From a bacterium (GTDB lineage: Bacteria; Elusimicrobiota; Elusimicrobia; Elusimicrobiales; UBA9959): 64,000 nt of DNA. Positions within the stretch are counted from its first letter, which is position 1, and each line of letters begins with the position of its first letter. This document shows, in pieces, positions 9,944-37,085 of this stretch. The notes under the pieces were generated by a model. The model worked only from the letters and a program-made list of their open reading frames with translations. It did not search any database and had not been told where the DNA came from. Where the stretch lies: assembly GCA_021811405.1 (NCBI GenBank), contig JAJZOZ010000001.1:5103-69102 (forward strand), given 5' to 3'. The position numbers and the translations under genes are program-made.

Positions 9944-10116
9944 GTCCCCACTGCCGGAGATCCCCCCCGGTCCTTATCTGCGGCGGTCCCGCTGCCGTTC
10001 CGCCGCGGCTTTTGAAGGCCGCGCGCGGGTATCATCGCGGGAACGGCATAGCTGACATGGCCGCGAACCGCCGGTTCCCATTGGCAGGGGTTGCGGCCAT
10101 TTGGCATAATAACACG

Positions 10117-21450: not shown

Positions 21451-22512
21451 ATGCGTAATCCACCCGCCAGACCCGTCCAGCGTAGTTTATGGAGCGCGTT
21501 CGCCGCCAAATGCGCCATTGCCCTTTTCGCCGGCAGTTTGGCGGGGCCGATCGCCGCGCATGGCCAGGACATCGTCTTTCCGCCGGCTCCGGATGCTCCG
21601 CGCGTGCGCTATCTGTACAGCCTCAGCGGGCCGCAGGACATCAAGCCGAAAGTGTCCGGGTTCAGGGCTTTTCTGCTGAAGCTTGCCGGTAAAGGCCCGC
21701 GGTCCGGCCAGGCCATGGTGCGGCCTTACGGCGTGTACGCCGCCTCCGGCCGCGTCTTTGTAGCCGATACCGGCGGCATGGCCGTGGCGGTGTTCGACCG
21801 CGGCGCAAAACGGCTGACGAGGATCGGCGGTTCGCGGGAGGGCAGCCTTATCAATCCGATCGATGTTGCAGCCGATGAGGCCGGCAATATCTACGTTACG
21901 GATTCCGGGCTGAATCTGGTCAAGGTTTACGGGCCGGACGGGAACTTCCTGAGGCAACTGGGCACGGCTTCGGGACTGTCGCATCCCACGGGCATCGTTT
22001 ACGACGCCGGCCGCAAACGGCTGATCGTCGCCGATACGGGGAACTCCCGCCTGGTCCTGTTCGACGCGGGCGGGAAAATGTCGGGGACTATAGGCCGCCG
22101 GGGAACGGAAAAGGGGGACATGTCGGTGCCGATAAATCTGGCGCTGGACAGGGAAGGCGATATCTATGTCGTGGAGAACATGCTCAGCCGCGTCCAGATA
22201 TATTCTCCGGAGGGGGTTTTTCTTTCGCAGTTCGGCAAAAACGGCGACCTGCCGGGCTATTTCGCCAGGCCAAGAGGCATAGCCCTTGACAGCGACGGCA
22301 ATATTTATGTCGTTGACGCCTTGATGAATATGGTGCAGATTTTCGACCGGGAAGGGAAACTGCTGCTGTTCTTCGGAGGCGGCGGCGCGGAGCCGGGCAC
22401 GTTCCAGCTGCCTGCCGGAATTTTCATAGATCCGGAGGACCGTATTTATGTGGTGGATTCCAACAATAGGCGTGTCCAGGTTTTCCAGTATCTGAAGCCG
22501 CCTCCGAAATAG
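21451..22512 (+). CDS. Exported NHL-repeat beta-propeller protein (paralog 2 of 4)
   Basis: Signal peptide. IVFPPAPDAPRVRYL. NHL units. C-terminal RRVQVFQYLKPPPK. Confidence 0.85.
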   Translation: MRNPPARPVQRSLWSAFAAKCAIALFAGSLAGPIAAHGQDIVFPPAPDAPRVRYLYSLSGPQDIKPKVSGFRAFLLKLAGKGPRSGQAMVRPYGVYAASGRVFVADTGGMAVAVFDRGAKRLTRIGGSREGSLINPIDVAADEAGNIYVTDSGLNLVKVYGPDGNFLRQLGTASGLSHPTGIVYDAGRKRLIVADTGNSRLVLFDAGGKMSGTIGRRGTEKGDMSVPINLALDREGDIYVVENMLSRVQIYSPEGVFLSQFGKNGDLPGYFARPRGIALDSDGNIYVVDALMNMVQIFDREGKLLLFFGGGGAEPGTFQLPAGIFIDPEDRIYVVDSNNRRVQVFQYLKPPPK

Positions 22513-22729: not shown

Positions 22730-23365
22730 ATGAAGAAACATGAATCCGTGTGGGCGGGCATGCTTATAGCGTGTGCCCTTGTTCTGCCGGCGCGGCCGGC
22801 GCGCGCAGTGGTTGCGGGTTCCCTGCACGACTTCACCGCGGCCCCGTATTCGCTGCTCACCACCTGTTCGGGCTGCCACGTGCCGCACCAGACCAAGACG
22901 AATGTCCCGTTATGGGCGCACGCGACATCCACGTATACCTACACATTGTATAACCAGAACGCGGCGTATGTCGTGAAAAGCCCCGCCTTCACTTACGATG
23001 CGTCCCCGAGCGCCCTCACGGGCAGCAAATCGCTGTTATGCCTGGGCTGCCATGACGGTACGGTGGCGGTATCCGGCACGAACTATATCACGCAGGCCTC
23101 GGCCTCCTGGATACTTTATGACGCCGGAGCGAAGGTGGGCGGCCAGGCGAGCGCCAATCCGTCGGCCGGCCTGAAAGGCAGCCATCCTATCGGTGTCGTC
23201 TACCAGGCGGTGGCGGGGAAATATAATGATATCTCGCTCGACCCCGATGTGAAGCTGGACAGCACCAAGGTCCAATGCACTTCGTGCCACAACCCGCACA
23301 ACCTGTTCCCCAAGATGCTGGTGAAATCAGGCGCCGCGCTCTGCACCACCTGCCATATAAAGTAA
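22730..23365 (+). CDS. Tetrahaem c-type cytochrome (211 aa), cassette A
   Basis: Start at ATG 22730 (RBS GGGGAGG, signal MKKHESVWAGMLIACALVLPARPARA). Motifs CSGCHVPH, CLGCHDG, CTSCHNPH and CTTCHIK, plus NVPLWAH and GSHPIGVVY. Confidence 0.85.
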   Translation: MKKHESVWAGMLIACALVLPARPARAVVAGSLHDFTAAPYSLLTTCSGCHVPHQTKTNVPLWAHATSTYTYTLYNQNAAYVVKSPAFTYDASPSALTGSKSLLCLGCHDGTVAVSGTNYITQASASWILYDAGAKVGGQASANPSAGLKGSHPIGVVYQAVAGKYNDISLDPDVKLDSTKVQCTSCHNPHNLFPKMLVKSGAALCTTCHIK

Positions 23366-23437
23366 CGCGCGGCAGGAACGGCCCGCCGGGGTTTTTAAGC
23401 ACGGGGGCCGCTGTTTCCGGGAATCCAGGATGATAAA

Positions 23438-24490
23438 ATGCGCTGGAAAACGGCCGGCATCAGTCTGAAAACGCTGAAGTTTCCAGCCATGCTGCTGGCT
23501 ATAGCGTTCACGGCAGCCGCCGCGGCGTCCGTTGGCGGGCGTGTCTGGCCCCCGGCCCCGGATAAGGCGCGGATCCGGCTGATAGCCGTGCTTCCCGAAG
23601 CGGCGCAGGAGGACAATGCCGGGCCGCTTTTTCTGAAAATTTTACGCCGCCTGGCCGGCCTGAAGCCGGGCAAGCGCCGCGGTCCGGGGTTTGTGCGCCC
23701 CACAGGCGTGGCCGTGCGCGGCCGCGTCGTCTATGCCGCAGACCCGGGAGCCGGAGGCGTTGTCATCTATGACACCGAAAAACGTTCCTGCAGCCTGATT
23801 CCGGCCAACCGCCGCAACCGCCTGCCTTCTCCGGTAGGAGTGGCGGCGGCTTCCGACGGGAGCATATTCGTCAGCGATTCCCGGCTGCGGAAAGTTCTTC
23901 TGTTCGACGCCGGAGGCCGCGCCAGCGGCGAACTTAAACCCCCGCCGGGCGCTTTCATGCGGCCGGGTGGTCTGGCTCTGGACGAGGCCCGCGGCCGGCT
24001 GTGGGTGGCCGACGCTGCGGCGCATATGATCTACGCCTATTCTCTCGGCGGAGAATACCTGTTTTCCATCGGCGCGCGGGGCCAGGCGCCCGGCAGTTTC
24101 AATTATCCCACCTATCTCTGGGCCGATACGCGCACAGGAGCCCTGTGGGTCTGCGACTCCGGCAACTTCCGCGTCCAGTCCCTTGACGCCGCCGGGCGGC
24201 CGACAGGGGCTCTGGGGCGCAACGGCAACTGCCCCGGTTATCTGGCGCGGCCGCGCGGCGTGGCCGCAGATTCCGAAGGCCACGTCTATGTGGCGGACGG
24301 CGCGATGTCCGCCGTGCAGATATTTGACGAGAGCGGGCGGTTATTGCTGTATTTCGGAGAGCGGGGCGGCCAACCGGGCGAGTTCTATCTGCCGGGGGGG
24401 GTGTTCATTGACGGCGACGACAGGATATATGTCGCCGATACCTATAACGCCAGGGTGCAGGTATTCCAGTACCTGAAGGACGCGCCATGA
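23438..24490 (+). CDS. Exported NHL-repeat beta-propeller protein (paralog 3 of 4), cassette A
   Basis: Signal peptide. VWPPAPDKARIRLI. NHL units. C-terminal ARVQVFQYLKDAP. ATGA overlap with the next gene. Confidence 0.85.
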   Translation: MRWKTAGISLKTLKFPAMLLAIAFTAAAAASVGGRVWPPAPDKARIRLIAVLPEAAQEDNAGPLFLKILRRLAGLKPGKRRGPGFVRPTGVAVRGRVVYAADPGAGGVVIYDTEKRSCSLIPANRRNRLPSPVGVAAASDGSIFVSDSRLRKVLLFDAGGRASGELKPPPGAFMRPGGLALDEARGRLWVADAAAHMIYAYSLGGEYLFSIGARGQAPGSFNYPTYLWADTRTGALWVCDSGNFRVQSLDAAGRPTGALGRNGNCPGYLARPRGVAADSEGHVYVADGAMSAVQIFDESGRLLLYFGERGGQPGEFYLPGGVFIDGDDRIYVADTYNARVQVFQYLKDAP

Positions 24491-26367
24491 AGAAAATGTC
24501 CGCCGCTGCCGCCTCCGCCGCGCCGGCCGCCATTTCGCTGCTTCTGGCCGGCGCGCTGTTCCCGCCTCCGGCGCGCGCGCTTGTCGTCGCCGGTTCTAAA
24601 CACGATCTCTCTCCCGGTTCGGGCACGTCCCAGACCTGCATATTCTGCCACACGGCCCACCAGGCCAAGCGGAACGTCCCGCTGTGGAATCATTACGTGA
24701 CCACCCAGACCTTCACCTTCTACTCCTCCAACCATCTCAACACCTACCTCGCCATCGCCGCCCCGACCATGGCCGACCTCCCCGGAACTCGCACGGAGCT
24801 GTGCCTGTCCTGCCATGACGGGATGACGGCCCTCGGAGGCCTCTACAATCTGGGCGGGGAAACCATTTCAAAACCCCCGGCCGTTACGGGCCCCGCCAAC
24901 CTGGGCACTAACCTCGCCGACGACCACCCGGTGCTTTACGACGTCAAGCCCGGCGCGGGTCCGCCCGGCTCGCCCGGCACCGACCCCGAGATACAACTGC
25001 CGCTTGCCGGCGACGCGGTCAAGGTCTACGGCGCCGCCAACAGGGTGGAGTGCACTTCCTGCCATGACCCGCATGATAACCAGTTCGGCCATTTCCTGGT
25101 CAAATCCAACGCCAACGCGGCCATCTGCACGACATGTCACATAAAATCCGGCTTTTCCGCCTCCGCGCACGCGACTTCCGTCGTGGCCTATACTCCGCCA
25201 GGCGAAGCGGCGACCACCGTCGGCGAGTGGTCATGCCGGAACTGCCACCGTTCCCACGGGGCGTCCGCGACGCAGGCCTACATCCTGCGCGGAGCCGAGG
25301 AGGCCACCTGCTACCAGTGCCACGGCAATCCTCCCCTGGCCGGCGCCAGGAATATGCAGGCGCTCTTTCTCAAAGCCTCCAGACACCCGACGGAAACGGT
25401 CTCGGCCAGGCATAAGGACCCGGAGACGGACGGCTCCAATTTCACGTATTCGCCGCTCAACAACAGGCATGCGGAATGCCAGGACTGCCATAATCCGCAC
25501 CAGGCCAAGACCGGCACCCATACCGCGCCCGCCAATAACATCTCGAACGTACTGCTGGGCCAGTGGGGCGTGGAACCCTCTGACGGCGCGATCTGGACCG
25601 CGGCCATCGCCTATGTCCGCCAGGTCTTCGCTAACACGACAGGCTACAAGGAGTACCAACTCTGTCTCAAGTGCCACTCCTACTACGCCTTCGGCGCCAT
25701 ACCCGCTCCCAATATCACGGACCAGACCGTCGAGTTCAATATCAATAACAAGGCCGCTCATCCTGTCCGCGCGGGTCTCAGCGGCCAGACCGGGAGCGTT
25801 GCTCCGAAGGCTTTGACGGCCGGCCAGATGTCGGCGCCGTGGACGACCGCCGGCACCCAGACGATGTACTGCTCGGACTGCCACGATTCTGACGTCGCTG
25901 CCGATCCCAAGGGTCCGCATGGCTCGGCCGGAACGTGGCTCAAGAAAGGCCCCAACGTCTACTGGCCCAGGGACGCCGCTCTGGCGCTGTATACGCTGGG
26001 CGCCAACAACACTACCGACGCGCATCTGGCGGGACTTTTCTGCCGCAACTGCCATCCTTTGAGAAGCGCGACAGCAAATACCTGGTACAACAACGCCCAC
26101 CAGGAGCACAGTGGGGCGCAGGTAAGCAATGTCCCCTGCGTGGCCTGCCATGTGGTGGTCCCGCACGGCTCGCGCCGCGGGCGGCTCATCGGCTACGCGG
26201 CTGAAAGCGCCCCCTACAACAACAACGGCGCGGGAACCCTTGAAAAACTCGTGCTGAGCGGCTTTAAGAAAGCGACGACCCCCGTAGGATACGTCACGGG
26301 AAACTGTTACTCCACCGTCGCGGGATGCAGTTCGGTGCATACGAACGCGGGTGGCTATGATCCCTGA
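24487..26367 (+). CDS. 11-haem c-type cytochrome (626 aa), cassette A
   Basis: Signal peptide. 11 CXXCH motifs: CIFCH, CLSCH, CTSCH, CTTCH, CRNCH, CYQCH, CQDCH, CLKCH, CSDCH, CRNCH and CVACH. The first ~215 aa are homologous to the small tetrahaem proteins. Confidence 0.9.
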   Translation: MKKMSAAAASAAPAAISLLLAGALFPPPARALVVAGSKHDLSPGSGTSQTCIFCHTAHQAKRNVPLWNHYVTTQTFTFYSSNHLNTYLAIAAPTMADLPGTRTELCLSCHDGMTALGGLYNLGGETISKPPAVTGPANLGTNLADDHPVLYDVKPGAGPPGSPGTDPEIQLPLAGDAVKVYGAANRVECTSCHDPHDNQFGHFLVKSNANAAICTTCHIKSGFSASAHATSVVAYTPPGEAATTVGEWSCRNCHRSHGASATQAYILRGAEEATCYQCHGNPPLAGARNMQALFLKASRHPTETVSARHKDPETDGSNFTYSPLNNRHAECQDCHNPHQAKTGTHTAPANNISNVLLGQWGVEPSDGAIWTAAIAYVRQVFANTTGYKEYQLCLKCHSYYAFGAIPAPNITDQTVEFNINNKAAHPVRAGLSGQTGSVAPKALTAGQMSAPWTTAGTQTMYCSDCHDSDVAADPKGPHGSAGTWLKKGPNVYWPRDAALALYTLGANNTTDAHLAGLFCRNCHPLRSATANTWYNNAHQEHSGAQVSNVPCVACHVVVPHGSRRGRLIGYAAESAPYNNNGAGTLEKLVLSGFKKATTPVGYVTGNCYSTVAGCSSVHTNAGGYDP

Positions 26368-26434
26368 ATCCCGCCGTTGCGCCGGGAGAAGGTGATGCCG
26401 GCCGGAATGGTTCCCGGGTTGGGAGGGCGAACTC

Positions 26435-28108
26435 ATGCGCCGCCATACCAGCTGTCTGCTCTGCGTTTTCTGGCTGCTGAAGGCGGCCGTACCCGCAGCG
26501 CGAGCGCAATCCCCGTACGCAGCGTCCGGCCGGCTCGGCTGGTCCTATGACGACGTCATGGTCCGGACCCCGGAGGGAAGCAGGCGCATCGCGATAGCCG
26601 GCCAGAAGTACAATCTGAACCTCCGGGGACCGTTCGGCCTGCCGGGGATCGGCGAAGGCTTCGCCACGCTCGACTATTCTGAAGGGAGGAACCTCTCGCA
26701 GGTCGTCGCAGGCGGGGGCGCCGCCCAGAAGCTGGTCGGGTATTCTATCGGCGGCAGCTTCCTCCCGCCGGAGGCGCGCGAATTCGTGTCGCTTGGCGGG
26801 ACGTTCGCGCGGAATTCCGACCGCACGGCCTGGGGCGCGGGTCCGCCCAGGAATCTCACGGACACGAGCTATGACGGCAATATCGGCCTGACGCTGCCCG
26901 GGCTGCCGAGCCTGCAGCTGAGCTGTCAGAACCTTCAGCGCCGCGACAGCGCCGAAGGCGCGCCGGCCAGCCAGGATATCATAACGTGGCGGGAGCGCGC
27001 GTCGTACGCCAAGGGCCCTCTGCGCTGGAATTACTTCCGCACCCGGCAGGATACAAGAGCCCTCGGTCCGGGAGTCCGGAGTTCCGGCAACGACGACCTT
27101 TCCACCGACCTGTCCCTGGACTATCCCGCTCTGCGCGTGCGCGGCCTGCGAAGCCTGGCCCTGCGCGCCTCGTTTACCCGCCAGGCGTTCGACAGCGCCG
27201 GGAACCGGAGGACGCAGCAGTCTATCGGCGAGAGCGGCTATCTCACCACGGCGCTTTCGCGCAGCGGACGGTTCGAGTCATATCTCGGCTACGGCGAGAG
27301 CTTTTCCCGCATCGCCGGGGAAAAAAGCCTGCGCTCCAGCCATAACCTGAGCCTGGTCAGCCAGTCGGTTTCGTCGCGCTGGAATGTGAACAACCAGGCC
27401 AAGTACTCCGCGGCCTCCGGCCCCGGCGTAAGCGGCCAGAGTCTCGACGAGAATTTCAACGCGGAGTCGCCGAGGTTCGGCAAATACTTCGTCTACTATC
27501 TGCAGAGCGCCGGCAGCGTCCGCTGGGGGGGATCCGGCGGAGGGACGGCCGGAGAATCGGCGTTGCAAAAACTCTCCTTCTATCCCCGCCCGGAACTGGA
27601 TGTCTACTGCCAGCAGAGCTACTCGGGTTCGGGCGCCAGGCTTGGCCGGGCGCGCGAGGACAGCCTCGGCTGGGCCGCGGGCGTCAATTGGCGGCCCGGC
27701 AGCCTTCTGGAAACCGCCGCCGACTACAGTCGGCAACGCGGCCGCGGTCTTCTTACTGACCAGCTGACGTTAAGTTATAAAGCCTTTCCGCTGGACAGTA
27801 TGACCATAGGATGCGGTTATTCCCTGCAGCGTACCCGGACTTACCGGCCGCTGCCGATGGAATCCGTGTACGGCACATTCAAAGCCGACCTTGGATATCG
27901 CCCGGCCGAGGGCCTCTCGCTGGACGCCAGCCTCCTGCGGCAACGGTTTGCCGGGGAGAATCCGGGCCGGCCAGGCGCCATGGATTATTCCCTGTCGGCG
28001 CTATACCAGCTGGGCGCAGTCGAAATGAGCGTTAAATACGAAAACCGCGCGATTTCAACGGTCAACGAATACAGCCGTCTGGCAGCGGAGTTCAGCCGGA
28101 ATTTTTAG
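26435..28108 (+). CDS. Large outer-membrane beta-barrel protein (557 aa), cassette A; putative porin partner of the cytochromes
   Basis: RBS GGGAGGG. Signal peptide ending AARAQ. Ser/Gly/Tyr/Arg-rich alternating beta-strand pattern throughout. C-terminal AAEFSRNF (terminal Phe). Paralog of 38586-40289. Confidence 0.7.
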   Translation: MRRHTSCLLCVFWLLKAAVPAARAQSPYAASGRLGWSYDDVMVRTPEGSRRIAIAGQKYNLNLRGPFGLPGIGEGFATLDYSEGRNLSQVVAGGGAAQKLVGYSIGGSFLPPEAREFVSLGGTFARNSDRTAWGAGPPRNLTDTSYDGNIGLTLPGLPSLQLSCQNLQRRDSAEGAPASQDIITWRERASYAKGPLRWNYFRTRQDTRALGPGVRSSGNDDLSTDLSLDYPALRVRGLRSLALRASFTRQAFDSAGNRRTQQSIGESGYLTTALSRSGRFESYLGYGESFSRIAGEKSLRSSHNLSLVSQSVSSRWNVNNQAKYSAASGPGVSGQSLDENFNAESPRFGKYFVYYLQSAGSVRWGGSGGGTAGESALQKLSFYPRPELDVYCQQSYSGSGARLGRAREDSLGWAAGVNWRPGSLLETAADYSRQRGRGLLTDQLTLSYKAFPLDSMTIGCGYSLQRTRTYRPLPMESVYGTFKADLGYRPAEGLSLDASLLRQRFAGENPGRPGAMDYSLSALYQLGAVEMSVKYENRAISTVNEYSRLAAEFSRNF

Positions 28109-28421
28109 CCCCCATGTTCTATAAGCGCGCCGGCGCCGATTTGTGTTTTACCGCCTTCGGCGCGCTGTCCGGGTATGCCTGAAAAACCGGCGCCCCCTCT
28201 TCCAAGGCCATAAGCCTTTAACGAGGTGAAAACGCAAATATTAAAATTAGTATATTCATCATTTTACCGCCGGCTATTCTTTCGGCGATCCGTTCCCCTG
28301 AACAGTTCCCGTACCGCAGCTCTTCCTGAATTTGCCCGCGGTTCTATTACAACTTCACGGTCAGGCTTAAAATATGGATCTTGCCCGGGTCGCCTATCTT
28401 GCTGGCGAAAAGGCGTAGTTG

Positions 28422-28530
28422 TTCCGGCGACAAGGTGACCTGCCTTTCCTGCCATGCCAGCGAACTGACGGCCGGCCTGCAAATGCCCGGCGGCCAGACC
28501 GCCCTCTGCCTCGCCTGCCACAGGCTGTGA
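28422..28530 (+). pseudogene. Orphan 3' fragment of a cytochrome gene (direct repeat copy B)
   Basis: Encodes ..GDKVTCLSCHASELTAGLQMPGGQTALCLACHRL*, nearly identical to the C-terminus of the 20539-21102 product. The frame is closed by TGA at 28327. There is no signal peptide and no ATG or RBS. An AT-rich patch lies upstream. Confidence 0.75.
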
Positions 28531-28563
28531 GCTCGCCCCGCCGCCGGCCGCCCCTCCGGGCGG

Positions 28564-29841
28564 TCAGCGCTCCCCGCCCCGGTCCAGCCCGAACAAGGTC
28601 CTGACAGCGCTTATCTTCGCCAGCGTCTCCTCGTCCGTACCGTTCCCGCCGTTCTTGAGGCCGGTGATGGGAGCGTGCAGGATCCTGCCGAGGACCCGCC
28701 TGGTGACCACGTCCAGCAGCTCGCGGTCCCGCTCCCCGAAGCGGCCGGCGTGCTTCTCCACCTCGCTGCGGCGGATCTCCTCGAAGAGCTCCGTCAGCTC
28801 CCTGATCGTGGGACCGGCGGCGAGGGAGAGGTGCCAGCGGGTGAACGCGGCGAGCTCCTCCTCTACGATAGTCCTCACCTTGGCGGCTTCGCGCGTCCGC
28901 TTGTCCAGGTTCTGGTCCACGATGCGCTGGAGGGCGTCGATATCGTGAAGGAAAACGTTGCCGACCTCGTCCGCGAGCGGGTCGATATTGCGGGGGACCC
29001 CGATGTCGATAAGGAAGAGCGGGCCGCGGTCGCGCTCGCGTTCCCCCATGGCCCGGCGTACGTCCTCCGCCCTGAGAACGTAGTCCGGCGCGGAGACCGA
29101 GCTGATGACGATGTCGGCCCGGCGCAGGTGGGTGTGAAGGGCGTCGAAGTCCACCGCCGTGCCCCCCAGCTTCCCCGCGACCTCCTCCGCCTTGCCGCGC
29201 GTGCGGTTGGTTATCAGCAGGTCCCGGACGCCCCTGCCGGCGAGGTGCCTGCCGGTCAGTTCGCCCGTTTCCCCGGCCCCTATGAGAAGGACGCGTTTCT
29301 GGTCCAGGCGCTCGAAGATCTTAGCGGCCAGCTCGGCGGCGGCGAAGCTGACGGAGACGGCGCCCTCGCCTATCCCGGTCTCAGCGCGGCTGCGCTTCCC
29401 GACGTGGAACGCCGTCTGGAAGAGCCGGTTCAGGAGCAGCCCGCTGGTGGAAAGCTCCGCGGCGAGGGAGAAGGCGTCCTTCACCTGCCCCAGGATCTGC
29501 ACGTCGCCCAGGACCATGGAGTCCAGGCCGGAGGCCAGCTCGAAGAGATGCTTCGCCGCCTCGCCGGAGCGGAGGGCGTAGAAATGCCCCGGGCGGGCCG
29601 CCTGCCGCGCCCCCTTGAAGTCCACCAGGAAATCCCGCAGCCGCTCCGGCCGCGGCTCGCCGGACGGGGAGACGGCGTAGGCCTCGGTCCTGTTGCAGGT
29701 GGAGACCAGGACGCATTCGCTGAACGCGCCGCTGCGCAGCGCGGGCAGCGCCTCCCGGAGCTCCTCGCGCGAGAAGCAGAGCTTCTCGCGGACGTCTACG
29801 GGAGCGGTCCTGTGGTTGAGTCCGACGCAGAGAAGGTCCAT
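28564..29841 (-). CDS. hemA: Glutamyl-tRNA reductase
   Basis: MDLLCVGLNHRTAPVDVREK. The motifs STCNRTE and GAGETGEL (NADPH site). Length 425 aa. Confidence 0.9.
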   Translation of the reverse strand: MDLLCVGLNHRTAPVDVREKLCFSREELREALPALRSGAFSECVLVSTCNRTEAYAVSPSGEPRPERLRDFLVDFKGARQAARPGHFYALRSGEAAKHLFELASGLDSMVLGDVQILGQVKDAFSLAAELSTSGLLLNRLFQTAFHVGKRSRAETGIGEGAVSVSFAAAELAAKIFERLDQKRVLLIGAGETGELTGRHLAGRGVRDLLITNRTRGKAEEVAGKLGGTAVDFDALHTHLRRADIVISSVSAPDYVLRAEDVRRAMGERERDRGPLFLIDIGVPRNIDPLADEVGNVFLHDIDALQRIVDQNLDKRTREAAKVRTIVEEELAAFTRWHLSLAAGPTIRELTELFEEIRRSEVEKHAGRFGERDRELLDVVTRRVLGRILHAPITGLKNGGNGTDEETLAKISAVRTLFGLDRGGER

Positions 29842-29862
29842 GGTTTGGCCGGAGGAACGCGC

Positions 29863-30687
29863 TCAGCTGAAATTGTGGAAGCCGCGGAAAAAGAGATTTA
29901 TGACGGTCATGGAGAGCAGGGCCAGGGCGAACCCCAGGATGGACAGGACGGCGAACTTCTTGCCGTACCAGCCCGCCGCCTCCCTCAGCCCGAGGCCGGC
30001 GCCGTACACCAGCCAGATGAGCGCGGTGCCGATGAGCTTCGGGTCCACGTAGGAATGCCCCGGGAACGCCCTGGCCAGCCACGCCATGCCGACCGCTATC
30101 GCCACGGTCAGGAAGAAAAAGCCCGTCGCCGTCGAGATGAAGCTCAGCCTTTCGAGTACCTCCAGGCTGGGCAGGCGCTCGTAGACGACGCCGAGCCGGC
30201 TGGACTTTATCTCGTGATAGAGCATCAGGTAGAGGAAGCCGTAGACGGCCGCGATCGCGAGCGCCGCGTAGCCGAGCAGCGCGCCGGAAACGTGTATCCC
30301 GAGAAGCCGGCTCTTCAGGACTGGATCCACGTCGGTCCTGTTCACGATCAGCAGCGAGGAGGCGAGCTGGAAGAGCAGCGGGAGACCGAGGATGAAACAG
30401 CCGGTGCCCTTCACCTTGGTCCAGTACTCCAGCAGGAAGTACGCGAGCGAAATGCTGAAGGCGATGACCGAGAGTATCTCCGGAAGGCTGGTGATGGGCG
30501 GGTGTCCCAGAAAGACCGTCCGGGCGAGCAGATAAGTGAGATGGACGGAAAGCGCGGCGATAAGCAGCGGCGTCTTGGCGGTCTTCGCGACGGGGCTCGC
30601 GCTGAAGAACGCCCTGGCGTACGCCGCTACTGTTGCCAGGTAAAGGAGCGGCAGCAGAGCGTTCAACGCGGTTATTGCATGGTTCAT
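29863..30687 (-). CDS. Cytochrome c assembly (CcsA/HemX-like) integral membrane protein
   Basis: About 8 predicted TM segments immediately upstream of hemA, as in hemA-hemX arrangements. The start at ATG 30687 is supported by the promoter at 30731-30759, so the track start at 30759 is rejected. Confidence 0.6.
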   Translation of the reverse strand: MNHAITALNALLPLLYLATVAAYARAFFSASPVAKTAKTPLLIAALSVHLTYLLARTVFLGHPPITSLPEILSVIAFSISLAYFLLEYWTKVKGTGCFILGLPLLFQLASSLLIVNRTDVDPVLKSRLLGIHVSGALLGYAALAIAAVYGFLYLMLYHEIKSSRLGVVYERLPSLEVLERLSFISTATGFFFLTVAIAVGMAWLARAFPGHSYVDPKLIGTALIWLVYGAGLGLREAAGWYGKKFAVLSILGFALALLSMTVINLFFRGFHNFS

Positions 30688-30730
30688 TGCCGTGTGCCGT
30701 AACGAAAAAACATACTGACCGGCCGGTTCA

Positions 30731-30759
30731 AGTTTATGTAAATCGTGTGTCGAAGTCAA
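30731..30759 (-). promoter_or_regulatory. Sigma-70-type promoter for the ccsA-like/hemA operon
   Basis: On the minus strand, TTGACT (30759-30754), N17, TAAACT (30736-30731). Confidence 0.55.
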
Positions 30760-31137
30760 GGGATAGGCCTGCCCCTGGATACGGGACCGGATGGGGGCTG
30801 CGCCGCGCGGCAGGGCGCTGTATCGGGAAGGACGGGGGGTCTTGGTCCTGGCGTCTCTGCCGGGAAATTTCCGCCTCCCTGCTATGGTATTTTCTGGAGA
30901 GTGTTTACATATTATAACGGGAAAGCCTCTTTATTAATGATTTATCTATATTATATATCAATGAAGGGGGTTGCGGGAAGCCAATTGTCATAATTTGGTC
31001 AAAAAACGCAGGGGTGGGGGTTTTCCCCCATGGGCAGAGCCCCCGGTTTTCATCAAAGCGCGGCATTCAGCTGGAAATAGGCTTGATGGACTTCAGATCT
31101 GCCGTTTCCCTATGAGAAATGCCGTCTTTGGCGGCTA

Positions 31138-31153
31138 TGGCAGGAATGCTGCA
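31138..31153 (+). promoter_or_regulatory. Candidate sigma-54 (-24/-12) promoter for cassette B
   Basis: TGGCAGGAATGCTGCA has correct register. It lies 79 nt upstream of ATG 31233. It overlaps the inverted repeat CTGCAC-N8-GTGCAG (31149-31168). An AT-rich tract at about 30900-30990 lies upstream. Confidence 0.65.
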
Positions 31154-31232
31154 CCAGTATTTGTGCAGTACCAGGCGGGTGTCTGGATTTTACAGGAAGA
31201 AAACAGCGAAAACGAAAATTATGGAGGAGATA

Positions 31233-31892
31233 ATGAAAAAGGCGAAAATCGCGGGTCTGCTGATAGCGATCTGCGCGATAACCACCGGTGTACAGCCGCT
31301 TCATGCTGCCATTGCCGGTTCAAAGCACGACTTCCGCCAGACCGGCGGTGGTTTTCCGATAACCGGCGTCACCGAGATGTGCGTGACCTGCCATGTGCCG
31401 CACAGGCCTCTGGTCAATGTTCCCCTGTGGAATCACTCGATCAGCTCGTATACCTACACGCTCTACAACCAGAACGCCGAGTACGCTTCCGGCAACAGCG
31501 CGGCTTACGACGCTTCCCCCAGCGGCCTGCAGAACTCCAAGTCCAGGCTGTGCATGTCCTGCCATGACGGTTCCGTCGCCGTGGCCAGCTCGGTGAAGAT
31601 ACAGAGCGCTTCCAACAACTGGATCCTCTGGGACAACGGCGCGGCCGTGGCCAACGGCTCCGGCACCGGCAACACCGGCATGAAGGGCTCCCACCCCGTG
31701 GCCGTCAACTACGCCACCGTGCAGACCGCCAACCCCACTGATTACGTGGCGGCCGCCAGCCTCGTGGACGTGAAACTCGACGCCGGCAAAGTGCAGTGCA
31801 CCACCTGCCACAACCCGCACAACAAGTACAACAAGATGCTCGTGGCGGACAACGCCGGCAGCGCGCTGTGCCTTAAGTGCCACATAAAGTAA
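31233..31892 (+). CDS. Tetrahaem c-type cytochrome (219 aa), cassette B
   Basis: RBS GGAGGAG. Signal MKKAKIAGLLIAICAITTGVQPLHA. GSKHDF. Motifs CVTCHVPH, CMSCHDG, CTTCHNPH and CLKCHIK. NVPLWNH. GSHPVAVNY. Confidence 0.9.
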   Translation: MKKAKIAGLLIAICAITTGVQPLHAAIAGSKHDFRQTGGGFPITGVTEMCVTCHVPHRPLVNVPLWNHSISSYTYTLYNQNAEYASGNSAAYDASPSGLQNSKSRLCMSCHDGSVAVASSVKIQSASNNWILWDNGAAVANGSGTGNTGMKGSHPVAVNYATVQTANPTDYVAAASLVDVKLDAGKVQCTTCHNPHNKYNKMLVADNAGSALCLKCHIK

Positions 31893-31980
31893 AGGGTATA
31901 GCGGGTCCCCTGAGGGCCTGACAGTACATAAGACGCCGGGCGCCACACACGCCCCCGGCGGCTTATTGAAGGGGGCGATG

Positions 31981-32008
31981 TTTACGCGGGAGGACGAAAA
32001 GGTATAAT
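31981..32008 (+). promoter_or_regulatory. Possible internal sigma-70-type promoter
   Basis: TTTACG-N16-TATAAT, 46 nt upstream of ATG 32055. The -35 box is weak. Confidence 0.35.
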
Positions 32009-32054
32009 TTATCCGGGTTTTTTCCGGCCGGATGTCCGGAGCCCGCTGATCAGG

Positions 32055-33077
32055 ATGAAAAAACTGCTGCTCTGTCTTCTTCTTGTCCCGCTTGCCATCG
32101 GCCCGGCCGCGGCCGGGGAGAAGCCGGTCTGGCCGGCTCCGCCGGACAAGCCGCGTATAGAGTATCTGGAAACCCTGACGGCCGGCAAGAGGGCGGACGG
32201 AAAGCGCGGGAAATTCGGGAAAATGCTGGATTTCCTGCTGGGCGTGGTGTCGGGCGGCCGCTCCGAGCAGGAGTTCTTGCGGCCTACCGGCATATGGGTC
32301 ACCGAGAACGCGGTTTTCGTCGCGGATCCGGGCGTCGGCCGCGTCATGGTGCGCGACAAGGCTTCCGGGAAGTCCCGTTGGGTGCCGTCCGCCAGGCGGC
32401 ACAGGATGCCGTTCCCGGTGGGCGTGGCGGTAGCGCCGGACGGCAGGCTTTTCGTAAGCGATCCGGAGCTGGGAGGGGTTTCGGTCTTTGATCCGGAAGG
32501 AAAGCCCCTTCCCGGGCTGGCGGCGCCTCCGCAGGGGTTCCAGCGCCCTACCGGCCTGGCCCTGGACGCGAAGCTCTCGCGGCTCTACGTGTCCGACACC
32601 GGCACGCATTCCGTTTCCGCCTACGGCCTGGATGGCCGCTATCTTTTCACTTTCGGAGGCCGGGGCGGCGGCGCCGGGGAGCTGAACTACCCCACCTATC
32701 TCTGGGCCGACTCCGGCACCGGGAGGGTGCTGGTCTGTGATTCCGGGAATTTCCGGGTCAGGATATTCGACCCGGAGGGCAAGCCCGCCGGAGGTTTCGG
32801 GGAGATGGGCGACAGGCCCGGGTATCTGGCCAGGCCCAGAGGCATAGCCGCCGATTCTGACGGCGACGTCTATTCGGTCGACGGGGCGCTGGAGGCGGTG
32901 CAGATCTTCGACGAAAAGGGCCGGCTGCTGCTGTACTTCGGGGAGAGCGGCGGCGCGCCGGGTTATTTCTCGATGCCGGGAGGGATATTCGTGGACGGAC
33001 AGGACAGGATATACGTGGCGGATTCGTTCAACTCCCGGGTGCAGGTTTTCCAGTACCTCAAGGCGGACGCACGATGA
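32055..33077 (+). CDS. Exported NHL-repeat beta-propeller protein (paralog 4 of 4), cassette B
   Basis: Signal MKKLLLCLLLVPLAIGPAAA. VWPAPPDKPRIEYL. NHL units. C-terminal SRVQVFQYLKADAR. ATGA overlap with the next gene. Confidence 0.85.
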   Translation: MKKLLLCLLLVPLAIGPAAAGEKPVWPAPPDKPRIEYLETLTAGKRADGKRGKFGKMLDFLLGVVSGGRSEQEFLRPTGIWVTENAVFVADPGVGRVMVRDKASGKSRWVPSARRHRMPFPVGVAVAPDGRLFVSDPELGGVSVFDPEGKPLPGLAAPPQGFQRPTGLALDAKLSRLYVSDTGTHSVSAYGLDGRYLFTFGGRGGGAGELNYPTYLWADSGTGRVLVCDSGNFRVRIFDPEGKPAGGFGEMGDRPGYLARPRGIAADSDGDVYSVDGALEAVQIFDEKGRLLLYFGESGGAPGYFSMPGGIFVDGQDRIYVADSFNSRVQVFQYLKADAR

Positions 33078-34981
33078 GCGCGCTTTCCAGGACCATACTT
33101 TTCCCGGCGGCCTTGCTGGCCTTCGCCGCGGCCCCGTGCCGCGCAGCCTCCATAGTGAACTCCAAGCACGACATGTCCTCGCTGTCGGCCACCACCGGGC
33201 CCAAGTCGCTCTCCACCAGCGAGCGCTGCGTTTTCTGCCATACTCCGCACAGGGCCGGCGTGAACGTGCCGCTCTGGAACCAGTCGGTCACCACCCAGAC
33301 CTTCACTTTCTATTCCTCCAACTACGTCAACACCTACCTGGGCATGGCCGTCCCGACCATGGCGAAGCTGGCCGGCTCCCGCACCAAGCTCTGCCTCTCC
33401 TGCCACGACGGCATGACCGCGCCCGGCAGCGTGTTCAATCTGGGCGGGACCGGCGGCCGGCTGAACATGAGCGGTCCGCTGGGCTCCGCTTCCACCCTCG
33501 GCGTGAACCTGGCCGACGACCACCCGGTCCTTTACGGCGTAAACCCGGGCGCGGGTCCCCCGGTCCAGCCGGGGACCGACCCCGAGATACAGCTGCCGCC
33601 CGCCGGGGACAAGGTAAAGGTGTACGGCGCGGAGAACCTGGTGGAATGCACCTCCTGCCATAACCCGCACGATAACCAATACGGCCATTTCCTGGTCAAG
33701 TCCAACGCCAACGGCGCGCTCTGCACCACCTGCCATTACAAGACCGGCTTCTCCGCCAGCGCGCATAAGCTGTCGGCCGTCTCCTATACTCCGCCCGGGG
33801 AGAGCCCCACCACCGTGGGCGAGTGGGCCTGCCGCGACTGCCACCGTTCGCACGGGGCGTCCTCGGTGCAGGCTTACCTGCTGAGCGGCGCGGAAGAGGC
33901 CACTTGTTACGCCTGCCACGGCAATCCGCCGCTTACCGGGGCCAGGAACCTGAAACTTACCGTAGGCAAAGCCTACAAGCACCCGGTTGAGACCGTCTCC
34001 GGCAGGCACAAGGACCCGGAGACGGATGGCGCCAATTTTACGTATTCGCCGCTCAACAACAGGCATGCGGAATGCCAGGACTGCCATAATCCGCATCAGG
34101 CCAAGTCCGGCACGCATGTCGCCCCGACCAACGTCATTTCCAGCGTCCTGCTGGGCCAGTGGGGCGTGGAACCGGCCTACGGCACGGCCAGCTGGACGCA
34201 GCCCACCAGCTATTCCAGGAAGGTATTCGCCGACACGCTGAACTACAGGGAATACCAGCTCTGTCTCAAATGCCATTCCTCGTACGCGTTCGGGACTACG
34301 CCCCCGCCCGGAATAACGGACCAGTCGATAGAACTGAGCATAAATAACCGCGGCGCCCATCCGGTGATACGGGGGCTTAACAGCCAGACCGGCAGCACCA
34401 GCCCCAAGCCGCTGGCGGCCAACCAGCTTTCCAGCCCCTGGTCCGCCGCGCGCGGAACGCAGACCATGTACTGCTCGGACTGCCACGGCCCGGACAGCAC
34501 AACGGATCCCAAGGGTCCGCACGGTTCCGCCGGAGAACACATCTTGTCCGGGCCGAACGTCTACTGGCCCAGGAAACCCGGGGGGGCGCTCTACACTCTG
34601 GACGACTTCCCCGGGGGGAACAACTCCGGCGCCAACACCTCGGCTGGCCTGTTCTGCCTGAACTGCCACCCGATGTACTCCGGAACCAGTTTCTTCAACA
34701 ACGTCCACATGGAGCATAATCAGAAGAATCAGGGCGTTACTCATGCCTGCGTCGGCTGCCATCAGGTGATCCCGCACGGCTCAAAACGCTCCCGGCTTAT
34801 AGGCTATGCCTCCGACCAGGCGCCTTACAACTATAACGGGACGGGGGCGTTCGATAAGCTGGTCCTGTCCGGGTTCAAGAAGGCGACCAGCCCTACCGGT
34901 TATGTGAAAACGAACTGCTACGCTCCTGTTTCCGGTTGCAGCAGCGAGCACGGGATCAACTCGGGCGGATATGATCCATGA
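33074..34981 (+). CDS. 11-haem c-type cytochrome (635 aa), cassette B
   Basis: Motifs CVFCH, CLSCH, CTSCH, CTTCH, CRDCH, CYACH, CQDCH, CLKCH, CSDCH, CLNCH and CVGCH. Collinear with 24487-26367. Confidence 0.9.
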   Translation: MSALSRTILFPAALLAFAAAPCRAASIVNSKHDMSSLSATTGPKSLSTSERCVFCHTPHRAGVNVPLWNQSVTTQTFTFYSSNYVNTYLGMAVPTMAKLAGSRTKLCLSCHDGMTAPGSVFNLGGTGGRLNMSGPLGSASTLGVNLADDHPVLYGVNPGAGPPVQPGTDPEIQLPPAGDKVKVYGAENLVECTSCHNPHDNQYGHFLVKSNANGALCTTCHYKTGFSASAHKLSAVSYTPPGESPTTVGEWACRDCHRSHGASSVQAYLLSGAEEATCYACHGNPPLTGARNLKLTVGKAYKHPVETVSGRHKDPETDGANFTYSPLNNRHAECQDCHNPHQAKSGTHVAPTNVISSVLLGQWGVEPAYGTASWTQPTSYSRKVFADTLNYREYQLCLKCHSSYAFGTTPPPGITDQSIELSINNRGAHPVIRGLNSQTGSTSPKPLAANQLSSPWSAARGTQTMYCSDCHGPDSTTDPKGPHGSAGEHILSGPNVYWPRKPGGALYTLDDFPGGNNSGANTSAGLFCLNCHPMYSGTSFFNNVHMEHNQKNQGVTHACVGCHQVIPHGSKRSRLIGYASDQAPYNYNGTGAFDKLVLSGFKKATSPTGYVKTNCYAPVSGCSSEHGINSGGYDP

Positions 34982-36273
34982 GAAAGCTGCTGGTCTCGCC
35001 CCGCACGGCGCTGGCGCTGATGGGGGCGATAGCGGCGGCCTGCTGCGCGGCTTCCTTCGTGCCGCAGATAGCCGACAGCAGCCCGGCCGTTATCGGGGCT
35101 TGGAGGAGTGCCAGCCCGCTGACTTACCGGCTGGCCGGGGTCCTGCGGCTTGACAGGATATATACTTCTCCATGGTTCCTGCTGCTGGTAGCCGCGGCCG
35201 GCGTGGTGCTTGCCTATTCGGTCCGGCTGCAGTTCCGCGGCTGCCTTTCCGGCCTGGCCGGGAGCGGCGCGCCGGCGGTCCAGTTCCCGGGCCAGGGGCG
35301 CTTGTCCGCGGCGCTGTCAGCCAGAGGGTATTCCATGCTTCCGGCATCGGCAGGAGAGGCCCGTTTCGCGGCCAACAGGCCTGGTCGGTGGGGCTCGCCT
35401 GTCTTTCATCTCGGGCTGCTGCTGGTGATAGTCGCCGCCTTCCTGACGTTCGCGTTCCAGCAGAGAGGCTTCGTGCAGCTGATAGAGGGCGAGGTCTTCG
35501 ACGGCGCCGCCGCCGATTTCCTTACCGTGAACAATGGGCCGCTGGCCGGCCGCTTTTTGGTGCCGTTCAGCCTGCGCATGAACAAACTGGAGCAGGCATA
35601 CTGGGGGAACGGACAACCCAGGGATTTCGGCAGCCGGGTGGACTTCCTGGAGGAAAGCGGCAGGCCGGCGCCGGCTCTGATCTCGGTAAACAACCCCTTC
35701 CGCCGGCGCGGCGTGACGGTGTACCAGTCGCCCTATTACGGCTACAGCGTGTCGCTGGCGCTGAAAAGACCGGCCGGCGCGGAAACGCTGACGCATTTCC
35801 TGCTGGACAGGGCCGCCGTCCCTTCGAGGCCTGCGGTCGGTGGGGCGGATTTCCCCGGTACGGGCTATCTTTTCTGGCTCGAATTCCTGCCGGACGCGGC
35901 CGGACGGTCGTTCTTCGTGAAGGACCCGGTACTGAAGGCCCGCGTGACGGAAGGCGGCCGCGTGGTCTTCGACGGCCCCGTTCCGATGGACGGCACGGTG
36001 CGGGTCGGAGCGGATTCCCTGCGCGTGGCGGCCGTACGCGGCTGGAGCGGGCTCGTGTTCGTCCGCGACAGGTGGCAGGGGCTGGCGTACGCGGGACTGG
36101 GGCTTTGCGTCCTGGGGGCCGCGCTGATGTTCCTGCTGCCGTATCGCGAGCTGGCCGTGGCGCTTCCGGACGCCGGCGAAGCTGTGGTCCGGGCGGTTTC
36201 GGGCAGGGAGATGGACCTGCTGCGTGAAGAGGCGCGCGACATAGAGGCTGAACTTAAAAAATGGAAGGAATGA
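34978..36273 (+). CDS. ResB/CcsB-like cytochrome c biogenesis protein (System II)
   Basis: Membrane topology of an N-terminal TM pair, a large soluble loop and a C-terminal TM. It sits directly upstream of, and is coupled to, ccsA. The assignment rests mainly on context and architecture. Confidence 0.6.
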   Translation: MRKLLVSPRTALALMGAIAAACCAASFVPQIADSSPAVIGAWRSASPLTYRLAGVLRLDRIYTSPWFLLLVAAAGVVLAYSVRLQFRGCLSGLAGSGAPAVQFPGQGRLSAALSARGYSMLPASAGEARFAANRPGRWGSPVFHLGLLLVIVAAFLTFAFQQRGFVQLIEGEVFDGAAADFLTVNNGPLAGRFLVPFSLRMNKLEQAYWGNGQPRDFGSRVDFLEESGRPAPALISVNNPFRRRGVTVYQSPYYGYSVSLALKRPAGAETLTHFLLDRAAVPSRPAVGGADFPGTGYLFWLEFLPDAAGRSFFVKDPVLKARVTEGGRVVFDGPVPMDGTVRVGADSLRVAAVRGWSGLVFVRDRWQGLAYAGLGLCVLGAALMFLLPYRELAVALPDAGEAVVRAVSGREMDLLREEARDIEAELKKWKE

Positions 36274-37085
36274 CCCCTCTTAAGGCCGGGATACTGCTGC
36301 ACTGGGCCGCGGTGACGCTCTATATACTCTCTACGGTGGCCTACGCGGCCGCAGCGACTTTTTCCCGTGAGAGCCTGCTGAAGAAGGGCTGGTGGCTGGC
36401 GCTGGCCGGACTTCTGCCGCACAGCGCCGCCCTGGCGCTGCGCTGGTACGCCACCGGGCACGGCCCGTACATGGCGAAATACGAGGTGTTCTCTTCCAAC
36501 GCCTGGGTGGCCGTACTCATGTTCCTGGTATTCTCCAAAAAGATACCGCGCCTCAGGGCGGCCGGTTACGTGGTGCTGCCCGCTTCCTTCCTGATGATGA
36601 CGGCAGGCTTGTTCACAAGCCCGGAGCTGCGTTTTCTGCCGCCGTCGCTCAGGAGCTTCTGGCTGGTGCTGCATACGGTGTTCGCCAAACTGGCCGTCGG
36701 AGGCATACTCATCGCGGTGGGGGCCTCCATCCTGTACCTGGTCAGGGAAAGGAAGGGCGGCGCGGAGGCGGCCTCCCTCCCGGCGCTGGACGACTATGCC
36801 GGCCGTTTCGCCGGCTTCGGCTTCATTTTCTGGACCATCATGACGGCCGCCGGCGCCATCTGGGCCAATGAGACCTGGGGCCGCTACTGGGGCTGGGACC
36901 CCATAGAGACCTGGTCCCTCATCACCTGGCTGCTTTTCGGCTCCTACCTGCACGGCCGCCGCTCCCTGGGCTGGCGCGGCGGGAAGGCCGCCTGGGTATT
37001 GCTCGGCTGCTTTGTCCTGTCGCTGGCCACGGTGTTCGTCATCCCGTTCGTCTTCGACACGCTCCACGGGGAGTACTTCAGATGA
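36261..37085 (+). CDS. ccsA: Cytochrome c-type biogenesis protein CcsA/ResC (System II haem handling)
   Basis: WWD-type haem-handling motif WGRYWGWDPIETWSLITWL. Polytopic membrane protein with conserved His residues. Confidence 0.85.
   Translation: MEGMTPLKAGILLHWAAVTLYILSTVAYAAAATFSRESLLKKGWWLALAGLLPHSAALALRWYATGHGPYMAKYEVFSSNAWVAVLMFLVFSKKIPRLRAAGYVVLPASFLMMTAGLFTSPELRFLPPSLRSFWLVLHTVFAKLAVGGILIAVGASILYLVRERKGGAEAASLPALDDYAGRFAGFGFIFWTIMTAAGAIWANETWGRYWGWDPIETWSLITWLLFGSYLHGRRSLGWRGGKAAWVLLGCFVLSLATVFVIPFVFDTLHGEYFR

Follow-up and report, generated by a model that had tools for sequence, protein, structure and literature searches.

A stretch of 64,000 nucleotides from a bacterium of the phylum Elusimicrobiota (GenBank assembly GCA_021811405.1, contig JAJZOZ010000001.1, positions 5,103 to 69,102), referred to below as the window, carries a cluster of multihaem cytochrome genes. 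Two small tetrahaem proteins, named S1 and S2, are encoded there together with two large proteins, L1 and L2, that contain 11 CxxCH haem-binding motifs each. The N-terminal modules of the large proteins are called L1N and L2N, and their C-terminal extensions L1C and L2C. An earlier note on this DNA had proposed that the small proteins are equivalent to the N-terminal modules of the large ones; the coordinates, lengths and haem counts it gave for the four proteins were all correct, and they are listed in table 1 with the other features of the cluster. L1 is 100% identical to protein M0025_12130 of a metagenome-assembled Elusimicrobia genome, where L2 is M0025_12165. A fifth copy of the module, S0, sits just upstream of the positions that the note had covered (22730-34981). 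We analyzed what this shared module is, how it is joined to the 7-haem extensions of L1 and L2, and how the cluster compares with the clusters around OmcE, the subunit of a known cytochrome nanowire.

Table 1. Features of the cytochrome cluster and its surroundings in the window
Feature	Position	Strand	Description
S1	22730-23365	+	211 amino acids, 4 CxxCH; standalone OmcE-family tetrahaem cytochrome, ends CHIK-stop
S2	31233-31892	+	219 amino acids, 4 CxxCH; standalone OmcE-family tetrahaem cytochrome, ends CHIK-stop
L1	24487-26367	+	626 amino acids, 11 CxxCH
L1 N-module	24487-25146	+	Residues 1-220: signal peptide, N-arm His39, four CxxCH, final invariant Lys220
L1 C-terminal extension	25147-26367	+	Residues 221-626: invariant His228 (codon 25168-25170) in the junction arm SGFSASAH; seven more CxxCH; conserved residues include 19 His, Met460 and the pair Cys607/Cys614
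L2	33074-34981	+	635 amino acids, 11 CxxCH; second L-type, 7-haem extension after module
L2 N-module	33074-33742	+	Residues 1-223, N-arm His32
L2 junction His231	33764-33766 (codon)		10 residues past haem-4 His221
S0	20539-21102	+	187 amino acids, 3 CxxCH; degenerate OmcE-like small cytochrome, hydrophobic N-terminus
Peptidase_C11 (clostripain family)	8512-9894	+	E = 2.7e-49; about 4 kb upstream of the cytochrome cluster
Sigma-54 DNA-binding-domain open reading frame	10012-11217	+	
HAMP/HisKA sensor kinase	11219-12676	+	Pfam
Sigma54-dependent response regulator	12680-14059	+	Pfam; directly upstream of the cytochrome cluster
cyt437	14139-15452	+	14 CxxCH; Pfam Paired_CXXCH_1 x5
AhpC/TSA-TPR protein	15449-16417	+	Pfam; between cyt437 and cyt176
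cyt176	16398-16928	+	5 CxxCH
Response regulator			Between cyt176 and cyt329
cyt329	18308-19297	+	11 CxxCH; related to the second (8-haem) Geobacter cytochrome (phmmer E = 1e-15 to 1e-27)
NHLa	19382-20428	+	Six-bladed NHL beta-propeller (Pfam NHL E = 1.3e-36)
NHLb	21451-22512	+	Beta-propeller (Pfam NHL E = 6.6e-31)
NHLc	23438-24490	+	Beta-propeller (Pfam NHL E = 1.6e-31); stop overlaps L1 start by 4 bp (ATGA)
NHLd	32055-33077	+	Beta-propeller (Pfam NHL E = 2.2e-27); stop overlaps L2 start by 4 bp
Candidate outer-membrane beta-barrel	26435-28108	+	557 amino acids, signal peptide, C-terminal ...SRNF; 67 bp after L1
hemA (glutamyl-tRNA reductase)	28564-29841	-	Pfam; between the two cytochrome sets
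CcsA-type cytochrome c assembly protein	29863-30687	-	Pfam; paired with hemA
resB	34978-36273	+	System II cytochrome c maturation (Pfam ResB); overlaps L2 by 4 bp
ccsB/ccsA	36261-37085	+	System II maturation (Pfam Cytochrom_C_asm)
B12-binding radical SAM gene and ~565-aa open reading frame (567 amino acids) without Pfam match	37082-40289	+	After resB/ccsB, with 4-bp and 8-bp overlaps

The module sequences (S1, S2, S0, residues 1-226 of L1 and residues 1-229 of L2) were aligned with MAFFT, and 22 columns were invariant across all five. Each of the ordered landmarks that had been described as common to the small proteins and the N-termini of the large ones was present, and in order, in this alignment. 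With pairwise BLAST E-values scaled to a database of 1e6 residues, S1 matched residues 1-220 of L1 at 36.6% identity over 224 columns (106 bits, E = 1.3e-29), and S2 matched residues 1-223 of L2 at 99 bits (E = 1.2e-26). Identity was 50.7% between S1 and S2, and 66% both between L1N and L2N and between L1C and L2C. The similarity among S1, S2, L1N and L2N exceeds chance by far, and the four are one homologous module. In BLAST, the module and the C-terminal extension showed no similarity to each other; therefore, the module is present once in each large protein. The small proteins were said to stop at CHIK where the large ones read on, and this was borne out: S1 and S2 end two residues past the His of haem 4, whereas L1 and L2 continue as CHIKSGF and CHYKTGF and run on for about 405 residues beyond the module.

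The relationship of the module to proteins of known structure was investigated by sequence searches of the PDB. Residues 27-220 of L1 matched 7TFS, the OmcE filament of G. sulfurreducens (PMC12954529), with E = 3.6e-29, and 9YUQ, the OmcE nanowire bundle of D. soudanensis WTL (bioRxiv 10.1101/2025.10.22.684050), with E = 7.6e-25. The corresponding values for S1 were E = 5.3e-9 (7TFS) and E = 3.2e-12 (9YUQ). A family profile built from 53 L-type proteins covered the whole OmcE chain in both cases (7TFS, E = 1.8e-51, profile positions 6-215 on chain positions 8-232; 9YUQ, E = 1.9e-34), and no significant PDB match to this profile was found beyond position 215, so that the extension is without a solved relative. 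Pfam and NCBIfam recognize the module merely as a generic paired-CxxCH domain. The same eight His columns are conserved across the OmcE, L and S groups (in L1, His39, 55, 58, 110, 147, 193, 196 and 218). All eight were 100% conserved in 118 L-type N-modules, including the His of the N-terminal arm (N-arm), and the N-arm motif xH(D/N)(F/L) was found in 110 of 111 standalone relatives. The kinship with OmcE-type nanowire building blocks that the earlier note had offered as speculation was thus right at the family level, as judged by the matches to 7TFS and 9YUQ, the eight His and the type of cluster. Nor did the module fall into a family of monomeric periplasmic cytochromes with all ligands in cis, since its sole solved relatives are filaments with His donated in trans. 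Judged from the sequences, it is almost certainly an OmcE-family tetrahaem domain in an omcE-type cluster.

S1 and S2 have the architecture of a standalone subunit, with a signal peptide, a short N-arm bearing the His of the H-D-F/L motif, four haems and eight His. They add divergent members to the OmcE family and bring in a phylum that is new to it, Elusimicrobiota; the published list of OmcE homologues names five phyla, and neither Elusimicrobiota nor Bacteroidota is among them (bioRxiv 10.1101/2025.10.22.684050). S0 lacks the full set of eight ligands, having three CxxCH motifs and no N-arm His. It resembles S1 only in its C-terminal half (BLAST E = 2.6e-14); its haem-1 motif has decayed to CLSGG, the His of the NPH motif is gone as well, and the three other haem motifs are kept. 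At the N-terminus it is hydrophobic, and a cleavage site is not evident there; S0 may be a partner anchored in the membrane or a paralogue in decay.

S1 was also the query of an exhaustive search, which returned 2,760 representatives at 50% clustering (E ≤ 1e-3), of which the best 150 were sorted by length into 114 short and 31 long relatives. Among these 114 short proteins, 96 had four CxxCH motifs and ended exactly two residues past the last one; the stop at CHxK is a family-wide rule for standalone members. We had considered this ending a sign of a constraint at the subunit interface, and the argument was weakened by the 8-haem cytochromes of Geobacter clusters, which end in CHNK. Of the 31 long proteins among the best 150, 29 carried the module at the N-terminus or as the first of several copies, and 27 also matched the profile of the L extension. 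For one long relative, P0249, a follow-up scan showed no module. Of the candidates that were scored, at least 5,187 proteins matched the L architecture of about 630 amino acids at E ≤ 1e-5; those with a named source belong to Elusimicrobia, Ignavibacteriae and Bacteroidota. Another kind of long relative is represented by P0196, a metagenomic protein of 1,400 amino acids (JGI/ENA, 23.9-kb contig), in which four OmcE modules with 16 CxxCH motifs follow one another in tandem without linkers over residues ~18-799. After the last module comes a His at +9 and then a tail of about 600 residues of non-haem, repeat-rich sequence. From its sequence P0196 looks like a natural covalent "mini-wire."

In the L-types, the module is followed by an arm with a strictly placed His. 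The first His past that of haem 4 stands at +10 in 118 of 118 proteins of the L family and, among the 31 divergent long relatives, in 21; the consensus of the arm is CH-x-K-(T/S)-G-(W/Y/F)-x-x-(S/A)-(A/I/V)-H-x-T-S. A similar spacing occurs where one module follows another. In P0196, the distance from the haem-4 His of one module to the His in the (S/T)KHD motif of the next is +10, +10 and +18. In standalone proteins, the two-residue tail and the apparent mature N-arm, which has 6-7 residues before its His, add up to the same +9/+10 (signal-peptide cleavage sites and lipoboxes were judged by eye). The arm after the junction also resembles an N-arm in its letters (S-A-H-x-T-S vs. T-K-H-N-L-S) and in its distance to the next haem, with 22 residues from the junction His to the next CxxCH and 19-20 from the N-arm His to haem 1. 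Together with the junction His, the L N-module holds nine invariant His for four haems. L1 and L2 are members of a conserved fusion family, in which one OmcE module runs unbroken into a His-bearing arm and then into a 7-haem extension.

The extension itself has 19 conserved His and Met460 for its seven haems, leaving about five spare ligands; with so many spare conserved His, the His count was dropped as a proof of a single spare ligand. A comparable candidate, the "ninth His" in the LW(A/N)H motif of the S-types, was discarded as a stopper feature, being conserved in just 22% of S-types. Met460 is nearly invariant and lies just before haem 9, and Cys607/Cys614 and His618 are conserved. These residues go beyond the bis-His needs of seven haems and hint at a haem with His/Met ligation, a disulfide bond, or a site for a metal or a substrate. 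A cryptic second OmcE module in the extension was also considered: hhalign aligned the N-module with the extension at 84-91% probability, with eight landmarks in order (L1 residues 309-523). The same profile aligned equally well or better to the unrelated cyt437 and cyt329 (E 1e-7 to 1e-14), and the second-module reading was rejected because the similarity is not above that of generic paired-CxxCH sequences.

The position of the junction His gains its interest from what is known of OmcE filaments. In OmcE, as in OmcS, the interfacial haem is ligated by a His of the subunit that holds it and by a second His of the neighbouring subunit (PMC12954529, PMC9473688). The authors of the OmcE nanowire study point out that such trans ligation leaves a haem unsatisfied at the filament end; in their view, an ideal stopper would resemble OmcE and have nine His to serve four haems, and they state that omcE operons encode no tip candidate (bioRxiv 10.1101/2025.10.22.684050). 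The L N-module with its junction His matches this description of a stopper exactly. We propose that the junction His would occupy the place where the N-arm His of the next subunit falls in linker-less tandem fusions. It would close the interfacial haem in cis, as if the next subunit had been fused on, and the L-type's own invariant N-arm His would be left free to plug into the preceding OmcE-like subunit. This would allow an L-type to be added to a polymer of S-type (or other OmcE-like) subunits at one end only. It would form the end of the wire, as a cap or tip that brings seven extra haems or as an adaptor at the base, beside the barrel, and the NHL propeller, whose gene is translationally coupled to the L gene, might act as its dedicated assembly or export partner. 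Our tentative reading, to which we give a likelihood somewhat short of even, is that the L-types serve as one-sided end-pieces on a polymer of the OmcE kind, the polymerization itself being a proposal. A wider claim would be that the L-types and tandem-module proteins such as P0196 are the missing end-pieces of OmcE nanowires, with a cis-closed haem, a trans-donated N-arm His and a tip or base head, and that they are widespread outside Desulfuromonadia; we consider this rather unlikely as a whole.

Several points weigh against the end-piece reading. The spare His and Met of the extension mean that His228 might simply ligate haem 5, and the +10 agreement with the tandem fusions is partly a trivial outcome of fusing modules without a linker. 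As the CHNK ends of the Geobacter 8-haem cytochromes show, a stop at CHxK also occurs outside OmcE. The reading presumes that the N-arm His is the ligand donated in trans and that the termini of neighbouring subunits abut in 7TFS and 9YUQ. The physiological role of OmcE filaments is itself debated (PMC11077965). An AlphaFold2 model of L1, computed without haems from a 53-sequence alignment, had a mean predicted local distance difference test score (pLDDT) of 51.6, with ~30-50 in the N-module, and a Foldseek comparison of this low-confidence model with the PDB gave no meaningful match. Finally, the L N-module is a nearer relative of the solved filament OmcEs than the S-types are, which makes the S-types uncertain as the polymerizing partner. 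7TFS scored 105 bits against L1 and 40 bits against S1; the solved OmcEs together scored 91-105 bits against the L N-module vs. 40-50 bits against the small proteins of the window. Geobacter OmcEs scored ~70-125 bits against L1N/L2N, ~45-100 against S2 and ~42-76 against S1.

This last comparison can also be turned into a different explanation, that the L-type itself polymerizes through its OmcE module into a decorated or "leaky" filament with a 7-haem side branch on every subunit, and that the S-types are minor or alternative subunits. Besides the bit scores, which make the L N-modules the nearest relatives of the solved OmcEs in this genome, a neighbour-joining tree agrees with it: the solved OmcEs and their proteobacterial homologues were placed beside the L N-modules, and the S-types of Elusimicrobia, Chlorobi, Bacteroidota and Ignavibacteria formed a separate clade. 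The eight His are all invariant in the L-types, and there is a precedent in five-haem OmcE-like variants with an extra solvent-exposed haem, which have already been described (bioRxiv 10.1101/2025.10.22.684050). However, the tree is weakly supported, with L monophyly in 67 of 200 bootstrap replicates, and the L chain continues exactly where the next N-arm would start, with a His at the same +10, which suggests that the site of the next subunit is occupied in cis. Moreover, OmcZ's bulky C-terminal domain blocks polymerization until it is cleaved (PMC12307469). We regard the decorated filament as improbable.

Cleavage was considered for the L-types as well. They could be precursors from which a cut after the invariant Lys220 releases a subunit like OmcE and, separately, a 7-haem protein, as OmcZ(L) is converted to OmcZ(S) by OzpA (PMC12307469). 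The Lys at +2 from the haem-4 His is invariant in 118 of 118 L-types and is also the usual C-terminal residue of standalone members, and the window has a gene for a clostripain-family C11 peptidase (table 1). But this gene is separated from the cluster by the open reading frame with a sigma-54 domain and by the two-component genes, and the gene tables of the related loci L038, L039, L040 and L042 contain no peptidase. In addition, the invariant +10 His and the conserved arm right after the putative site favour an intact junction, and standalone genes are already present in the same clusters. Processing of this kind seems to us very improbable, more so than the decorated filament.

To place the window among related clusters, 36 loci around OmcE relatives were collected from reference genomes; 31 loci of the Geobacter type were compared. 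The L-type loci numbered seven (the window counted twice, L036 of Chitinophagales, L038 of Ignavibacteria, L039 and L042 of Elusimicrobia, and L040). In Desulfuromonadia, omcE clusters are flanked by resB/ccsB; the published definition of the cluster combines OmcE with a pair of multihaem cytochromes, a pair of beta-propeller lipoproteins and a large beta-barrel, inserted next to these genes (bioRxiv 10.1101/2025.10.22.684050). In the Geobacter-type loci, the order was resB, ccsB, a 9-haem and an 8-haem cytochrome, an NHL lipoprotein, OmcE, (a second NHL), a barrel of about 750 amino acids ending in F, and glycosyltransferases. By its composition, the cluster in the window is of the omcE type, with extra paralogues. 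Its cyt437 is a homologue of the first (9-haem) cytochrome of the Geobacter cluster (phmmer E down to 3.3e-92, 18 loci), and its NHL proteins are 31-38% identical to those adjoining OmcE in Geobacter loci. An NHL gene directly preceded the L gene, with a 4-bp stop/start overlap, in seven of seven L-type loci, and each L-type cluster contained one or two small OmcE-like genes. No counterpart of the L1 extension was found by BLAST or phmmer within 10 kb of omcE in any of the 31 Geobacter-type loci. In our literature search, we found no description of an 11-haem fusion family within omcE-type clusters, of its pairing with NHL and standalone genes, of the junction-His logic or of the tandem-module proteins.

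The L-type clusters also contain a candidate barrel gene of about 550-560 amino acids ending in F; the second set of the window (S2-NHLd-L2) has no barrel of its own. The assignment of the 557-residue protein as a barrel rests on its position, its signal peptide and its C-terminal Phe. It had close homologues only and no match in Pfam or NCBIfam, and its AlphaFold2 model, made from four homologues only, had a pLDDT of 30. Homology of the barrels across the cluster types was sought with phmmer, which found none, and with hhalign (probability 0.5% and 2.6%).

The barrel bears on a third explanation, in which nothing polymerizes. The L-type would be the terminal reductase at the outer surface of a monomeric porin-cytochrome conduit, in a complex of the Mtr or Pcc kind; its N-module would dock at or into the barrel of about 555 amino acids and receive electrons from cyt437 and cyt329, and the S-types would be separate soluble or surface cytochromes. 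The L gene directly adjoins the candidate barrel in the Elusimicrobia loci (the window, L039 and L042). OmcE-like cytochromes with 8-13 haems in an Acidobacteriota "porin-scaffold-cytochrome" cluster (EET1) have been read as Mtr-like conduits (bioRxiv 10.64898/2026.05.27.727921), and the NHL and cytochrome clusters of D. ferrophilus have been interpreted as outer-membrane complexes (PMC5815863). The spare conserved His of the extension could fill all haems in cis. The L2 extension also reached 37.6 bits with the Pfam MtrC/MtrF domain II/IV, a marginal score against the threshold of 30; L1 (23.2) was below it. In contrast, the S-type gene, not the L-type gene, adjoins the barrel in the Bacteroidota and Ignavibacteria loci, and the conduit gives no role to the one to three co-encoded standalone OmcE-like proteins. 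The solved relatives of the module are exclusively trans-ligated filaments, and the N-arm His is invariant in the L-types despite the ninth His at the junction. Moreover, L1 and L2 have N-termini with signal-peptidase-I-type sites (ARA/LVV and CRA/AS) and without a lipobox, by eye, leaving no obvious means of surface retention. We consider a conduit of this kind possible but doubtful.

The remaining genes of the window surround this core (table 1). The sensor kinase and the sigma54-dependent activator upstream of the cytochromes also precede the L-type clusters of L038 (1-2324) and L040 (1-2340); they mark the cluster of the window as one under putative sigma54 regulation. The frame of the AhpC/TSA-TPR protein, which is peroxiredoxin-like, overlaps those of cyt437 (-4 bp) and cyt176 (-20 bp); it is an unusual companion of multihaem cytochromes, and its place is taken in the Bacteroidota and Ignavibacteria clusters by an unannotated open reading frame of about 280 amino acids. 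Two CcsA-type genes are present in the window, and the related contig L042 has several copies of resB/ccsA; these multiple copies suggest a dedicated maturation capacity for haem-rich clusters. The pair formed by the B12-binding radical SAM gene and the reading frame of about 565 amino acids is likewise found beside resB/ccsB and an L-type cluster in L042 (3584-6738), and a role of the pair in cytochrome or haem maturation is possible. The genes downstream of the cluster are housekeeping genes, with no glycosyltransferase island.

The start, termination, tipping and anchoring of cytochrome nanowires are an openly stated gap, and a candidate end-piece is encoded inside the operon itself both in the window and in related loci, with at least three phyla represented. 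The end-piece reading predicts that the +10 junction His closes a haem in cis and that the N-arm His is donated in trans. If it is true, the end-pieces would set the polarity, termination and anchoring of the filament, and the 7-haem head would contact minerals or couple to the barrel. If the conduit is true instead, the nanowire fold would have a further use, as the domain through which a large family of surface cytochromes docks. In addition, OmcE-type systems are extended to Elusimicrobiota, and the four-module tandem and the 11-haem fusion indicate that the OmcE module can be concatenated in nature, which bears on engineered wires of defined length and with defined ends.

Among known systems, the omcE cluster itself (GSU0618/7TFS; DSOUD_2954/9YUQ) is the closest. 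The window shares with it full-length homology of the module, the eight His, the N-arm H-D-L/F and, in S1 and S2, the CHxK stop, as well as the NHL neighbours, the barrel ending in F, the two homologous multihaem cytochromes and resB/ccsB; being without a glycosyltransferase island, it resembles the "smallest" published type of this cluster. However, it has five copies of the module instead of one and four NHL genes. Its barrel of about 555 amino acids has no detectable homology to that of about 750, its two L-type fusions have no counterpart in the 31 Geobacter-type loci, and its S1 and S2 belong to a separate, more distant branch of the family in another host phylum, Elusimicrobiota. As in MtrCAB, Pcc/Ext and EET1, a single cluster encodes multihaem cytochromes of the periplasm, a candidate barrel and a multihaem cytochrome that is extracellular. 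Unlike such porin-cytochrome conduits, the window showed no significant homology to MtrA/DmsE, MtrB/PioB or MtrC/OmcA (the NCBIfam DmsE-family decahaem model scored 25-72 bits vs. a cut-off of 192), and the L proteins are without a lipobox. EET1 (bioRxiv 10.64898/2026.05.27.727921) also has OmcE-like cytochromes with more than four haems, a likeness by description only, and the module junction was not analyzed in that preprint. Likewise by description only, NHL genes lie among genes for extracellular and 12- and 14-haem periplasmic cytochromes in D. ferrophilus IS5 (DFE_448-451 and DFE_461-465; PMC5815863), and cyt437 too has 14 CxxCH motifs; the nanowires proposed there are membrane extensions, not cytochrome polymers.

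Other nanowire and pilus systems offer parallels. In the osc cluster of OmcS, a subunit with trans-donated His is encoded with paralogues (OmcT, OscC) and proposed secretion or folding factors (Shen et al. 2025, as cited in PMC13194489), so that a filament subunit comes with companions as it does in the window. Unlike the case of OmcE, neither the single sequences nor the family profile matched OmcS in the PDB. The His that OmcS uses is His16 of a CxxCHxxH motif. In OmcZ(L)/OmcZ(S) with OzpA, a nanowire haem domain is followed by a C-terminal region thought to prevent polymerization on that side (PMC12307469). The OmcZ tail is removed by a protease and its ligands are all in cis, whereas the L extension has seven haems, is strongly conserved and has no co-conserved protease. 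The terminator and tip subunits of chaperone-usher pili, in which a variant of the polymerizing fold joins at one end and is encoded in the same operon (bioRxiv 10.1101/2025.10.22.684050), offer an analogy only. Fold and chemistry are entirely different there, and in the L-types polarity would be given by haem-His ligation instead of donor-strand exchange.

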